Origin: a virus
Taxonomy: Duplodnaviria; Heunggongvirae; Uroviricota; Caudoviricetes
Strand: one strand, 5' to 3'
IMG/VR virus record: IMGVR_UViG_3300005337_000004
Coordinates: 1 to 60,744 of that record
Length of the DNA stretch: 60,744 bases
Below the pieces are notes generated by a model. That model ran no database searches. It saw only the letters and a list, made by a program, of their open reading frames with translations, and was not told the origin of the DNA. Positions within the stretch are counted from its first letter, which is position 1; each line of letters opens with the position of its first letter. The position numbers were made by a program, and so were the translations under genes. Below are positions 5,487 through 40,432 of the stretch, one piece after another.

Positions 5487-5542
5487 ACCTCGATGATACC
5501 TGTTGCCACTTCCGGAATCCATCCCCGGAACCCTCTTGCGGA

Positions 5543-5562
5543 AGTAGCTTCCGGAAGCTACT
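5543..5562. promoter_or_regulatory. 20-bp perfect palindrome, putative operator in divergent intergenic region
   Basis: AGTAGCTTCCGGAAGCTACT; second TTCCGGAA core at 5510; seven GGAAG/CTTCC pentamers in 5509-5602. Confidence 0.65.
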
Positions 5563-5608
5563 GTTAGAGATGTCAGGAAGCAGGAAGCAACCGAGGGGGA
5601 AGCTCGAA

Positions 5609-35822: not shown

Positions 35823-36002
35823 ATGGCACTGCTCAAGAAGAACACCAGCGACGCCGAGGCGTACAACCAGGCCGGCGACGACGCCGCCAAGCAGGGCCGG
35901 ACCGACAGCGCCGAGATGTTCTACGACATGGCCGTCGCCGAGGCGACCGACGCCGACCGCGCGGCCCGCGGCAAGAGCCCGCGCGGCGGACGCCGCGGCT
36001 GA
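35823..36002 (+). CDS. small hypothetical protein
   Basis: GAAAGGA RBS; 59 aa. Confidence 0.65.
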   Translation: MALLKKNTSDAEAYNQAGDDAAKQGRTDSAEMFYDMAVAEATDADRAARGKSPRGGRRG

Positions 36003-36012
36003 CCCACCAACT

Positions 36013-36059
36013 CCCGGCCGCCTCAGTCCGAGGTCCCCAAGCCCACTGAGGCGGCCGGG
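36013..36059 (+). other. 15-bp perfect intergenic hairpin
   Basis: CCCGGCCGCCTCAGT-N17-ACTGAGGCGGCCGGG. Confidence 0.7.
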
Positions 36060-36086
36060 CTTCACCGCCGAAAGGAGAACCGAGCC

Positions 36087-36425
36087 ATGACTACCACCAT
36101 CACCCTCGCGCTGCTCCTCATCGGCGCATGCCTCGCCGGTTTCGGCACCCTTGCGTTCCTTGCCGCCGTTCCCGCCGCACCTGACCCCGACGGCACCAAC
36201 CCCAGCGCGCCCGATGTCGAAACGCTGCGCCTCACCTGGCTCGCGGCCCGCCATGGACGCCACGTCGCCGGACTCGGCCTCGCCATGTGGCTGGCCGCAC
36301 ACCCCGCCACCGCCGCCCCCTATACCGCGCTGCTTATCGCCGCCGGTGTTGCCTTTGCCACCTCGTACCTCACCACCCGCGCCGCCCCCGAACTCATGAA
36401 GAGGGCAGCCGCATGGACCTTGTGA
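36087..36425 (+). CDS. membrane protein
   Basis: GAAAGGAG RBS; three hydrophobic segments. Confidence 0.7.
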   Translation: MTTTITLALLLIGACLAGFGTLAFLAAVPAAPDPDGTNPSAPDVETLRLTWLAARHGRHVAGLGLAMWLAAHPATAAPYTALLIAAGVAFATSYLTTRAAPELMKRAAAWTL

Positions 36426-37462
36426 TAAATCAGGATTCTGCCGCCACCAACGAAAGCGATAAGATGCATTCGGGCTTGGGGCCAAAGAACCCGACCGTCG
36501 GGAAGGACGGCCGGGCTTTGCCGCACGCGATTGTTGGGATCGACGTGAGCGACAAGCCCCACGGTAAGGCAAAAAGGCGCGACAAGAACAGCGCGCCCAC
36601 CCTGGCCGTCCCCAAAGAAGCCATCCGCGACTCCCGCATCGGCGGGACCATCGCCCTACTTTGCGCCGCTGCCATTTCCGCACAAACCCTGTTCGCCCTC
36701 GGGCGGCTCATCGGCCTGTCCCCCTGGACCGCATGGCTGCTGCCGGCCGCGCTCGACGTCTACGCCATGACCGCAACCCGCGTCGCCTTCCAGGTGCCCG
36801 TCGGCCACACCGCCCGCGACAAGGCCATCTGGAACGCCCGCGTCGCCCTGTTCTTCACGATCTCCAGCAACTGCCTCTACCACGCCATGCACCTCGCTAA
36901 GGGGCACCACAACTGGACCGCCTCCGACTGGGCCCTCGTCGGCGTCTCGGCGCTCCCGCCGATCGTCGTGGAGCGTCTGCTGCACTTGCAGTCGATCGTG
37001 AACTCCGGCACGGTTCCGGCCGCGCCGGAAGAGGCGAGTGGAAGCCGGAAGGAGTCCGCAGCCGGAAACGGAAGCGCCGACCGGAAGCAGCGGCCGGAAG
37101 CTCCCGCTTCCACTCCCGCTTCCGTTCCGGCTTCCAGCCCGCTTCCGGTATCCGCTCCCGCCGGAAGCCCCGCCGCTTCCAGCGGAAGCAGACCGGCCGC
37201 ATCCACTGCAAGCCGGCACACCGCATCCGGACCCATCCCCATCCAGCGCGGCGAGCGACTGAAAGTCGTCCGCGACTGGATCGACAGCGCCGGCGGCGAC
37301 AAGAAGTCCGTGCCGCTGAAGGAGATCCAGGAGCGCTTCGGCGTGTCCCAGGCGACCGCCTCCCGCATGCGTGACGACGCCGCAGATCTGCCCTCCAAGC
37401 CCGCGCCGCAGCCCGAGCAGGCCGGCGACGAGGAGCCCGAACGAGCGCGGGAGGCGAGCTGA
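36413..37462 (+). CDS. DUF2637 (Spd-like) membrane protein with C-terminal HTH
   Basis: AWLLPAALDVYA, NARVAL, SNCLYH, VSALPP; C-terminal LKEIQERFGVSQATASRMR. Confidence 0.78.
   Translation: MDLVINQDSAATNESDKMHSGLGPKNPTVGKDGRALPHAIVGIDVSDKPHGKAKRRDKNSAPTLAVPKEAIRDSRIGGTIALLCAAAISAQTLFALGRLIGLSPWTAWLLPAALDVYAMTATRVAFQVPVGHTARDKAIWNARVALFFTISSNCLYHAMHLAKGHHNWTASDWALVGVSALPPIVVERLLHLQSIVNSGTVPAAPEEASGSRKESAAGNGSADRKQRPEAPASTPASVPASSPLPVSAPAGSPAASSGSRPAASTASRHTASGPIPIQRGERLKVVRDWIDSAGGDKKSVPLKEIQERFGVSQATASRMRDDAADLPSKPAPQPEQAGDEEPERAREAS
37027..37188. repeat. Cluster of 13 GGAAG/CTTCC motifs in the DUF2637 linker
   Basis: 37027, 37040, 37047, 37070, 37083, 37096, 37107, 37119, 37131, 37142, 37163, 37176, 37184; forward copies fall in all three codon phases. 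Confidence 0.85.
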
Positions 37463-39654
37463 TGACACGACACGACGCGGAGATCTTCGACGAGACCACC
37501 GAAGATTTTCGGTGGAGCAGCGGCCACGACCTGAGTCGCGTCATTCCTGGATCTGCCGCACAAAGGGGCGACGAACAGGACTTGACCTGGCCTTCTGCCG
37601 TTTTTCCCGGCCCCGGCGTGGGCTACGACGCGCTGAGTCAGCACGGTCAGCTCACTTTGAACGCGCTGCTCGCCCCCGACCTGCCGCGGCCCATGAACGC
37701 CGCCTGGACCAAGTGGCCCGGCTGGCAGTACGTGTGGCCCGGTGCGCTCGCAGGCGGCTGGTCCGGGCTCGGGTTCTGGGCGCACTCCGAGCCGCTGCAC
37801 CCGCTGTTCGCCGGCGGTTTTGGGCTGGCCGGCGCAGCCCTAATGGCGCTCGGCGCGCTCGGCATCGCCGCCAGCAACACCGGGAAGCGGGATGCGGAAG
37901 ACCACCCGGCCGACACCGCCGGAACCCGCGCTCTCATCGGTCTCGGCGGGGCTGCATGGGCCGGCGCCGCGGCTTCCGGTGCCGGGTTCTCCGGTATCGG
38001 ATGCATGCTCGCTTTCGGAAGCCTCGGCGCCGCATACCTCGGCGCAAGCGGATGGAAGCACATGCGACGCCACAACGCCATCCGCGCCGTCATCGACTAT
38101 GCATCCGCTTCCAATCCGGGACCCGGAAGCGGCATGCCGCTTCCGGTGATCCCGCCGTTTGCACTGCCGGACAACCGGATGCCGTCGAACCCCTATGAGC
38201 ACCGGTTGCGGCAGGCCGTGTCGGTACAGGGAGTCGACGACATCTGGTTCGGGCCGCCGATGAGGGTGGCCCAGGACACCTGGCAGCTGCCGTTCGAACT
38301 GGGCGAGACCTCCAAGCTGTCGCCGCAGGCCCTTGTGAAGAAGGAAGACCAGCTCGCCACCAACGCCCGCGCCCGGCGTATCGAGGTCGAACCCACCCAC
38401 GGACCCCGCGGCACCATGACCGTGTACGACGGGCCTGACCGCACAGACGAGACCTTCCCGTGGAACGGCACCCTCATTAAGAGCGTCGAGAAGCCGTTCC
38501 TCATCGCCTACGACGAAGCCAGCCGGAATACCGAAATCGACTTCACCGAGCACATTCTGCTCACCGGCCGCACGCGCTTGGGCAAGTCGGCACTTCTGCG
38601 CTACCTGCTCGTCGCCACCATCGAATGCGACATCGTCCGATTCGGCGTCGACTGCAAAGACGGCGCACCAGGCTTCGGAATGCTCGAACCGGTCTTCACC
38701 GAGCTGGCCACCGACCCGATGGACGGATGGCGCCAACAATTCGGCATCAAAGGCATTGCCGCCGTCCGCGGCCAGTGGATGCGCCGCAAAGGCATCGACA
38801 AGTGGGACCTGGCCGACGGGCCCCGCGTTGTCCAGGCCACCGACGAGCTCGCCGAGATGATCCTGCGCTACCCCGACGCCGCAGAGATTTTCAAGTCCAA
38901 CCTGTCGCTCGTTGCCGCCTCAGCCATCACCTACCTCACCGCGACACAGACCCCCTCCAAGGCTGTGTTCGGGAAGAACACCGACGGCCGCAAGCAGTTC
39001 GGCGTCCGCATCGGCTTCAAAAACGACATCGAGGCCAACACCATGGTTTTCGGTGGGCTGCCCGGCTACCGGGTGCAGGATCTGGATGCCGCCGGCAAGC
39101 TCCTCATTGCCTCGCTGGAACACCAGCGTCCTCGACGCCATAAGTCCGTATGGATGGACCGGGACCCGGCGCTTGCCCTAATGGAGCGATACGACGGGCG
39201 CCTGCCGAAGATCGATGCGATGTCATGGGAGGGCTACCTGGCCGCCTGCGAGGCTTTCGACGAGGCGTTGCGGACGGGAGCGAACCCACTGGAGACATTT
39301 GAGCCGCCGCCATCCGGTGGGGGCGGACGGCGCACCGACTCGTTTGTTGATTCGGCACAGGCAGAGGAACGACGTCGGGGCTTTCGACTGGTCACGAACT
39401 ATCCGGGTACGGACGAGCCGATTGAGATGAAGCACCTGGCGCTGTGGAACCTGCTCGGCGAGTACGGCGCTGACGGCACCACCGCCATGGAATTGGCGGC
39501 GCGCCAACTCGACGGGTTTACCTCGGAGTCGAACGTCCGTAAGCAACTGCGGGCCTGGGACGCCCGCGGTTTCATTACCTCGGTGAAGGACGGCCGGGCC
39601 GAGCGCTGGTGGCGCATCGATGTGGTCGACGAGCCAGCCCGGAAGGACGCGTGA
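37462..39654 (+). CDS. FtsK/SpoIIIE-family ATPase, TraB-like (N-terminal TM helices, C-terminal winged HTH)
   Basis: Walker A GRTRLGKS, Walker B VQATDE, ATQTPS; C-terminal ESNVRKQLRAWDARGFI. Confidence 0.85.
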   Translation: MTRHDAEIFDETTEDFRWSSGHDLSRVIPGSAAQRGDEQDLTWPSAVFPGPGVGYDALSQHGQLTLNALLAPDLPRPMNAAWTKWPGWQYVWPGALAGGWSGLGFWAHSEPLHPLFAGGFGLAGAALMALGALGIAASNTGKRDAEDHPADTAGTRALIGLGGAAWAGAAASGAGFSGIGCMLAFGSLGAAYLGASGWKHMRRHNAIRAVIDYASASNPGPGSGMPLPVIPPFALPDNRMPSNPYEHRLRQAVSVQGVDDIWFGPPMRVAQDTWQLPFELGETSKLSPQALVKKEDQLATNARARRIEVEPTHGPRGTMTVYDGPDRTDETFPWNGTLIKSVEKPFLIAYDEASRNTEIDFTEHILLTGRTRLGKSALLRYLLVATIECDIVRFGVDCKDGAPGFGMLEPVFTELATDPMDGWRQQFGIKGIAAVRGQWMRRKGIDKWDLADGPRVVQATDELAEMILRYPDAAEIFKSNLSLVAASAITYLTATQTPSKAVFGKNTDGRKQFGVRIGFKNDIEANTMVFGGLPGYRVQDLDAAGKLLIASLEHQRPRRHKSVWMDRDPALALMERYDGRLPKIDAMSWEGYLAACEAFDEALRTGANPLETFEPPPSGGGGRRTDSFVDSAQAEERRRGFRLVTNYPGTDEPIEMKHLALWNLLGEYGADGTTAMELAARQLDGFTSESNVRKQLRAWDARGFITSVKDGRAERWWRIDVVDEPARKDA
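37883..38144. repeat. Second cluster of about 11 GGAWG(C) motifs inside the TraB-like gene
   Basis: 37883, 37890, 37896, 37972, 37999, 38017, 38054, 38101, 38107, 38125, 38139 (both orientations). Confidence 0.7.
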
Positions 39655-39655
39655 G

Positions 39656-40432
39656 ATGAGCGAGACCTGCGTTGCTGCTGATTTCGGCAGTGAGTGCACC
39701 ACAAAGGCAACGATGGTTACCCCCGTGCCGTTGTGTGATGAGCACCGACTTCAGGTGGCTTTGCTAGTTGTACCGGACGTCCTGACCGCGGCTCTGCGGC
39801 ATGCGGGCAGCGACGTGAGGCCGGCGCCGCTGGCGCCGGAGGAACGAGCCGCCATTGTTGCCGGGGCACGTGCAAAGCCTGTTGGCGCGTACATGGGCGG
39901 AGTCCACGGCCCGGTCGTGTACTTCGCCGACACCGGAGCGCGCATCAAGATCGGCACCTCGACGAACCTGCGCAAGCGGATCCGATCGCTGTCTCTGCAG
40001 GACAAGGATGTGGTGCTGCTGCTCCAGGGCGGCCTGATGCTCGAGCGGGCGCTGCACGACACGTTCGCGAAGGAGCGGATTGACTCCACCGAATGGTTTG
40101 CCAAGTCCGAGCGGCTCATGAAGTTCATCGAAGGCAAGCGCGGAGAGCTCGGCGTCCAGCCGAAACAGCAACCCCAACGGCGAGCGAACAAGCCGTCCCC
40201 GACGCCGCAAACCGGCCGTGCCGGCGCGCGGTCGCTACCCGAGTGGGCGAACCTGGCGCTGCCGCTCTACCAGCAGCATGTGGCCAAGGTTGGACGCAGG
40301 CCGTCCGGGACGGAGCTGGCCAAGCTCATGGCGGACGCGGGCTACGGCGAGATCAAGGAGGCCCGCAGTCGCTACATCCGCAACGCTGCCGCAAAGCTGG
40401 CCGGTTCACCGGACGCCAAGGGGCGCGGCTGA
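39656..40432 (+). CDS. T5orf172-like GIY-YIG domain protein with C-terminal HTH
   Basis: VVYF...IKIGTSTNLRKRI...LERALH..F...EWF. Confidence 0.78.
   Translation: MSETCVAADFGSECTTKATMVTPVPLCDEHRLQVALLVVPDVLTAALRHAGSDVRPAPLAPEERAAIVAGARAKPVGAYMGGVHGPVVYFADTGARIKIGTSTNLRKRIRSLSLQDKDVVLLLQGGLMLERALHDTFAKERIDSTEWFAKSERLMKFIEGKRGELGVQPKQQPQRRANKPSPTPQTGRAGARSLPEWANLALPLYQQHVAKVGRRPSGTELAKLMADAGYGEIKEARSRYIRNAAAKLAGSPDAKGRG

Follow-up and report, generated by a model that had tools for sequence, protein, structure and literature searches.

Arrays of a short word in two adjacent genes of a tailed phage co-vary with the helix-turn-helix of a membrane protein

The window analysed here, 60,744 nucleotides at positions 1 to 60,744 of the IMG/VR record IMGVR_UViG_3300005337_000004, is the first half of a single-contig virus of 124.7 kb (66.6% GC) with overlapping ends and, since genes for a large terminase, portal, protease and major capsid protein are present at 46.5-53.5 kb, the element is a tailed phage. 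Two adjacent genes in it, one for a membrane protein with a C-terminal helix-turn-helix (HTH) and the other for a TraB-like double-stranded DNA (dsDNA) pump, carry two dense arrays, A and B, of the word GGAAGC or its complement GCTTCC. The arrays are kept by selection on the DNA and, among the neighbours compared in related elements, the word co-varies with the HTH of the membrane protein only. Both arrays are, on balance, probably clusters of dsDNA binding sites for that HTH and not a classical TraB clt; the physical binding, a tethering to the membrane and a link to the function of TraB are predictions from comparison of sequences.

Two arrays overlaid on codons

The GGAAGC/GCTTCC hexamer occurs 11 times in array A (37040-37189), where about 0.1 copies are expected, and seven times in array B (37883-38144), where the expectation is about 0.2; it is set by the window as a whole, with 56 copies against 38.9 +/- 6.9 in dinucleotide shuffles. 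Array A also holds GGAAG and GGATGC variants, and its copies follow the strand order ++++----+-+ with a dyad centre near 37101; array B has a further four GGATGC and its orientation is mixed. The longest shared word, ACCGGAAGCGG, is found four times over the two arrays. In a sliding scan of the whole 124.7-kb genome, array A is the densest cluster of the hexamer, with 11 per 300 bp where the clusters ranking after it reach 7. An earlier note on this DNA had reported 13 copies of GGAAG/CTTCC within 162 bp, and exact recounting of 37027-37188 gave the same number. The run of sites about 12 bp apart that it described as flipping near 37100 was found at 37070-37141, with spacings of 13, 13, 10, 12, 12 and 11 bp and the change of strand at about 37101, and its approximately 11 further copies in 37883-38144 are close to the 10 now counted for the looser word GGAWGC.

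All three codon phases are in use by the 18 hexamer copies, as 'frame-independent' in the earlier note had implied, but the evenness was overstated: two thirds, 12 copies, are in phase 0 (GGA AGC for G-S, GCT TCC for A-S), with three in phase 1 and three in phase 2. The codons that the copies bring with them are rare ones, GGA serving for 11% of Gly, GCT for 9% of Ala and CTT for 10% of Leu. When the protein is held fixed and codons are redrawn from phage usage, the mean is 1.15-1.29 copies per array with a maximum of 5 in 2000 trials, against the 11 and 7 present. Because redrawing at fixed protein yields only about 1.2 copies per array, selection acts on DNA; the same claim in the earlier note, that selection is on DNA and not on protein, is supported both by this and by the synonymous word switches described below. 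The use of both strands and of three phases favours recognition of duplex DNA over that of RNA or of a peptide.

An RNA-structure reading was considered and rejected. Array A (window 37032-37181) folds as RNA into one long hairpin (-84 kcal/mol, z -5.6) owing to its ++++---- order; the hairpin is missing in L003, L005, L006, L007, L008 and L009 (z -0.9 to +1.3) and so cannot be what is conserved.

Elsewhere in the genome GGAAGC forms just one further local cluster, which is intergenic, between divergent genes (window 5500-5605), with five copies that include a 14-bp palindrome, AGCTTCCGGAAGCT; more half-palindromes of the TTCCGGAA type are directly upstream of an ATG at about 5610. It could serve as operator to a regulator with similar specificity, or the same HTH might use it secondarily.

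Which protein the word follows

Relatives of the TraB-like protein, recovered by protein and locus searches, range from 95% to 34% identity and are all on metagenome or viral contigs, several of them 50-134 kb. Each of the twelve lineages found through TraB has two arrays in the same places, -520 to -150 and +350 to +920 from the traB ATG. With four distant lineages added, sixteen in all, eight words are represented: GGAAGC, GCGGCA, CGGCACG, GCAACS, TCGGCAC, GGCAAC, CCGTCCA and GCGCAC. Class 1 (GGAAGC/GGAWGC) comprises the window, L001, L002, L003 and L006, together with L005 in a weak form, and class 2 (GCGGCA(G)) comprises L004, L007, L009, L012 and L015; CGGCACG is the word of L008 and GCAAC(C/G) that of L016. 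The words are mutually exclusive, arrays of lineages with another word having 0-1 GGAAGC, and every testable array of the relatives exceeds its own codon-redrawn expectation for its own word (P<=0.0005 per array). Of the spacings between sites, 46% fall outside multiples of three.

Where TraB residues are conserved, synonymous codons make the switch from one word to another. The G-C of G-I-G-C-M is written GGA TGC by all five lineages of class 1 and GGC TGC by all five of class 2, and P-L-P is CCG CTT CC(A/G) in class 1 versus CCG CTG/TTG CCG in class 2; in class 3, P-V-P is encoded as CCC GTG CCG.

The tails of the membrane proteins are of unrelated-looking types across lineages, and the third helix of the HTH goes with the word: S-Q-A-T-A-S-R-M-R, the helix of the window, with GGAAGC, H-K-S-T-A-S-R-L-R with GCAACS, S-(P/E)-R-S-E-R-N-I-R with GCGGCA and S-D-R-W-E-R-K-L-N with CGGCACG. 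Identities within and between word classes, computed over eight lineages, set this HTH apart from the other parts compared (Table 1), and only 2 of 70 labelings reach the observed difference for the HTH partition, which is the minimum possible. Co-variation of homologs' motifs with an HTH had been put forward as a check in the earlier note; it was run and came out positive for the HTH of the membrane protein. The suggestion made there, that the repeats are sites for a membrane-anchored DUF2637 HTH, fits the comparative data, in which the word appears to change with that HTH and nothing else.

Table 1. Protein identity within and between word classes (eight lineages)
Part compared	Within	Between
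Membrane protein, HTH	54%	19%
Membrane protein, membrane domain	41%	35%
TraB residues 131-270 (array B-encoded)	53%	52%
TraB motor	56%	53%
TraB winged helix	58%	58%
Small upstream membrane protein	41%	45%
Basic protein encoded downstream (seven lineages; in the window another gene is at this place)	31%	35%

Some lineages have discordant combinations. L007 has a membrane domain of the window type, and the array B-encoded segment of its TraB is closest to that of class-1 L005 and L006, yet its HTH is type II and its word GCGGCA. The window TraB is nearer to those of class-2 L004 and L009 than to those of class-1 L005 and L006 (73-74% versus 51-54% over the winged helix), and L004 (GCGGCA) and L005 (GGAWGC) have the identical TraB helix 3, S-E-S-N-V-R-K-Q-L-N-V-W. 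These discordances imply that array B is rewritten to match the HTH of the neighbouring protein and is not inherited with the local protein lineage.

They bear also on a classical clt, in which the repeats would be TraB recognition sequences (TRS) read by the winged helix of the pump, as on pSVH1, pJV1 and pWTY27; the clt/TRS loci of these plasmids and of pIJ101 are read by TraB or TraA (PMC4447253, PMC3583192). There is much in common. A clt is marked by a cluster of short repeats of 6-9 bp, either at traB or within it (PMC4447253, PMC3583192), the clt of pWTY27 extends into the tra gene, and the phage pump has a winged helix; in the phage too, short repeats (5-9 bp) that are specific to the element, and whose role is presumed to be in cis on its DNA, cluster beside or inside the gene of an FtsK-like dsDNA pump with a C-terminal winged helix. 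The defining property of clt, however, is that repeat specificity comes from helix 3 of the winged helix, so that word and winged helix co-vary, and this is not what was found. The winged helix is as similar between word classes as within them, that of the window sides with class 2, and its helix 3 (S-E-S-N-V-R-K-Q-L-R-A-W) is conserved in relatives from every word class and unchanged between L004 and L005 despite their different words. A search for a 7- or 8-mer common to all loci, as a candidate TRS for the conserved winged helix, returned only generic GC-rich words. Further differences from clt/TRS are that the word follows the HTH of a separate membrane protein, that there are two arrays of 7-28 copies wholly in coding sequence, with orientation mixed or mutually inverted, and that the element is a 125-kb tailed phage. 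That TraB reads the repeats, which the earlier note had entertained, is accordingly held to be improbable.

The relation of word to HTH was also followed out of sample. The membrane protein was used as query in an exhaustive search without profiles, which gave 208 cluster representatives with highly diverse tails; four distant members were picked in advance for third helices not seen before, and their contigs were fetched. At all four loci an overlapping TraB-like gene follows the membrane-HTH gene, and each of the four has arrays where they were predicted, built from a new word, at overall densities of 12-30 per kb in the arrays versus 0.4-2.2 per kb elsewhere. The density of GCGCAC is 11.7 per kb against a background of 1.0, that of TCGGCAC(C) 16 against 2.0 and that of (A)CCGTCCA 27-30 against 1.1-1.4, array B of the last being off the contig; for GGCAAC, 22 of 23 copies are inside the arrays.

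Sites for some other factor, whether another DNA-binding protein of phage or host or polar signals of the Chi or KOPS kind, could also vary from lineage to lineage, following the host or some gene not linked to the arrays. The copies in type II lineages are mostly on the + strand in array A and mostly on the - strand in array B, a polarity that recalls KOPS or Chi, and the co-variation was compared for the four nearest genes only. Set against this, the rest of the genome shows no enrichment of the word (33 copies of CGGAAGC lie outside the arrays, with about 28 expected from base composition), closely related phages differ in their word, and third helix and word match in 16 of 16 lineages, including the four picked in advance for new helices. 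An unrelated reader of the arrays is hence unlikely.

Several observations weigh against binding by the membrane protein's HTH. Part of array A is a tandem repeat (TRF units of 13 bp x2.5 and 12 bp x3.9, which encode x-P-A-S repeats) and that part may stem from slippage; as the linker is disordered and rich in P, A, S and G, the entire pattern might be taken for a low-complexity by-product in which a 12-13 bp unit was copied with no function at the DNA level. This is very improbable, as the same word fills array B by synonymous codons in a conserved, non-repetitive membrane segment, is on both strands and in three phases, and is switched in arrays A and B together in sixteen lineages; the 13-bp unit, moreover, moves frame at every copy. 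L005 has the class-1 third helix, yet its array of GGAAGC/GGAWGC is weak and degenerate. The distances between sites vary, peaking at 6, 12, 15 and 18 bp without strict helical phasing, and in this the arrays differ from classical iterons or parC. Foldseek with the HTH model returned generic HTH folds, none of them significant, and no specific DNA-binding family. The putative link of HTH to arrays is one of co-variation only and, since array A begins or ends just 20-200 bp away from the codons of the HTH, some of it could reflect co-inheritance; array B argues against pure co-inheritance, though it is still within 1 kb of those codons. Lastly, the role of the arrays may be in transfer, segregation or regulation.

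The membrane protein, the pump and a possible role

The membrane-HTH protein has four hydrophobic helices, a disordered linker, the C-terminal HTH, modelled as three helices (pLDDT 85-92), and an acidic tail, D-E-E-P-E-R. By the positive-inside rule the HTH is predicted to be cytoplasmic, a basic stretch preceding the four hydrophobic helices. Its assignment to DUF2637 (PF10935) is marginal: the long open reading frame (ORF) scores 22.2 bits and residues 43-245 score 23.9, where the cut-off is 22.8, and the second type of membrane domain (L006) scores 20.9 bits with the same cut-off. Pfam also gave weak HTH_IclR, MarR and HTH_23 matches, all on the same HTH residues. The acidic tail is conserved as (D/E)-E-P-E-R-x-x-E (window 37430-37459) whichever HTH type precedes it, and many of the 208 family representatives have it too; it could be a peptide that binds a partner, or its sequence may be constrained by the overlapping ribosome-binding site of traB.

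The TraB-like protein has the architecture of a TraB-type conjugative translocase, with an N-terminal membrane part (hydrophobic helices at about 90-200), an FtsK/SpoIIIE motor with the Walker A sequence G-R-T-R-L-G-K-S at residues 369-376, and a C-terminal winged helix, which in the structure model is ArsR/MarR-like (root-mean-square deviation 1.4-2 A). It matches phrog_1358 (FtsK/SpoIIIE-like, 1.3e-6) and a conjugative coupling protein (0.0023); PF01580 was found on its relatives, its own Pfam match being below the cut-off. The gene is a recombination mosaic when L001 and L002 are compared with window 37462-39654: the L001 protein is 97-100% identical to residue 600 and 70% over the last 130 residues, and that of L002 is 87-94% identical at both ends and 56-59% in the motor.

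In the mechanism proposed, sites for the HTH would be written into the linker codons of the gene that encodes it and, in the following gene, that for the pump, into the 5' third. Many membrane-anchored copies would bind the approximately 25 sites across about 1.1 kb and would hold this region of the phage DNA against the cytoplasmic membrane, beside the pump. Such tethering might serve the hand-over of DNA for transfer from cell to cell or compartment to compartment, or else retention and segregation in the mycelium. A broader version is decidedly tentative: that, across this family of phages and plasmids, substrate choice by a TraB-type pump is delegated to a separate integral-membrane adaptor, whose HTH and site arrays re-specify together, giving each element a private 'membrane centromere' by which tailed phages could move or segregate as naked DNA through the mycelium.

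Binding of the arrays by the membrane protein might instead control traB, by roadblock or autoregulation, without positioning DNA. The arrays bracket the start of traB, the two genes are translationally coupled (TGATG, the stop of the first overlapping the ATG of the second), and on Streptomyces plasmids traB is a potentially toxic kil gene under tight control (PMC4447253). Yet 20-50 sites over two stretches of 200-500 bp far exceed known operators, a promoter and terminator scan gave nothing exceeding chance, with no promoter-like site between the arrays, and the usual traB repressor, a GntR-type regulator, is encoded elsewhere in related operons. Control of traB as the purpose of the arrays therefore seems unlikely, if a shade less so than reading by TraB or by another factor.

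That the arrays are docking sites fits two proteins of Streptomyces plasmids. SpdB2 of pSVH1, a membrane protein with four helices, binds both dsDNA and TraB, is required for spreading within the mycelium and has reported actinophage homologues (PMC4447253). A protein of the SpdB2 kind would be expected to share its sequence, to form oligomeric pores and to bind TraB; the phage protein is like it by architecture and gene position only, and the binding of SpdB2 was reported to be non-specific, with no cognate site array described (PMC4447253). SpdA2 of pIJ101 binds specific sites, sps, inside its own coding sequence, and synonymous recoding separated site from protein (PMC4170104); loss of sps affected stability and not transfer (PMC4170104). 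What the phage locus would have in common with SpdA2 is a DNA-binding protein of a Spd module with sites in its own gene. Unlike the phage protein, SpdA2 is of 117-163 amino acids with no membrane domain described (PMC4170104), and sps, a single conserved palindrome of 12 bp present in 1-3 copies, is common to many plasmids and is not a lineage-specific array; the sps palindrome, CGTCACGTGACG, is not among the repeats of 36900-38300, and the protein architecture differs from that of SpdA-type proteins, whose DNA-binding domain is N-terminal.

A different comparison is with centromere arrays and pole anchors. In ParR/parC, ParB/parS and RacA/ram, DNA is positioned in the cell through clusters of many sites that a single small DNA-binding domain recognises, and these frequently surround the gene of the binder or lie within it. 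Clustering of many sites for one small domain is what the phage arrays would share. Different are the absence of an adjacent ParA- or ParM-type motor gene, a putative binder that is itself an integral membrane protein and a neighbour that is a DNA pump.

Full-text literature searches retrieved no paper in which arrays of sites change together with the HTH of a DUF2637/SpdB2-like membrane protein. Substrate choice in Streptomyces-type dsDNA transfer is known for only a few small plasmids, with TraB reading clt, and the role of Spd membrane proteins is largely open. If a membrane HTH does read private arrays beside the pump, this would give a specific and testable role to an SpdB2-like protein and would explain the presence of such modules in large temperate phages. 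The two genes also provide a clear natural case of predicted binding sites overlaid on two protein-coding sequences through synonymous codon choice, and at least eight putative orthogonal pairs of HTH and word are open to direct test.

Features and neighbouring genes

Coordinates are collected in Table 2. The open frame of the membrane-HTH gene extends upstream to a GTG at 36287. No Rfam family was matched within 36000-40000.

Table 2. Features of the locus (window coordinates)
Feature	Position	Strand	Remark
Membrane-HTH protein gene, ~349 amino acids	36413..37462	+	ATG 36413 agrees with the length of relatives
Array A	37026..37229	.	Codons of the linker between membrane domain and HTH
Three-helix HTH codons	37247..37387	+	Residues ~321-367 of long-ORF protein P0001; structure model
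TraB/FtsK-like translocase gene, 730 amino acids	37462..39654	+	Motifs, PHROG match, winged helix
Array B	37883..38182	.	Codons of TraB residues ~141-240 (last membrane helices and following segment)
Perfect 24-bp palindrome from two sites, CCGGAAGCGGCA / TGCCGCTTCCGG	38123..38146	.	Repeat analysis
TraB C-terminal winged-helix codons	39424..39621	+	Structure model and relatives

A scan of contigs from the genomes of cultured species found no relative. The nearest cultured relatives of the pump (L018-L020, 28-30% identity) are on phage or 'plasmid' records of 129-133 kb, a size similar to that of the phage studied here; in these, gp10 of Streptomyces phage Gilgamesh and 130-kb Streptomyces plasmids, no membrane-HTH gene precedes that of the pump and comparable arrays are absent. 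The membrane domain has a distant homologue in gp30 of phage mu1/6, which has no TraB neighbour and shows no clear array. A whole-record pattern scan of a 133.8-kb relative gives no information, its word being common in GC-rich DNA.

Directly upstream of the membrane-HTH gene is a gene for a small membrane protein of about 100 amino acids (window 36087-36425), which is kept in all relatives and whose product is nearly identical across lineages of different word classes. The gene right after traB (window 39620-40432) encodes a protein with a T5orf172/MUG113 domain, where relatives have an unrelated basic protein. Over its C-terminal 64 amino acids it is similar to the type II HTH tail that ends the membrane proteins in other lineages (38% identity to L007, E 3e-7).

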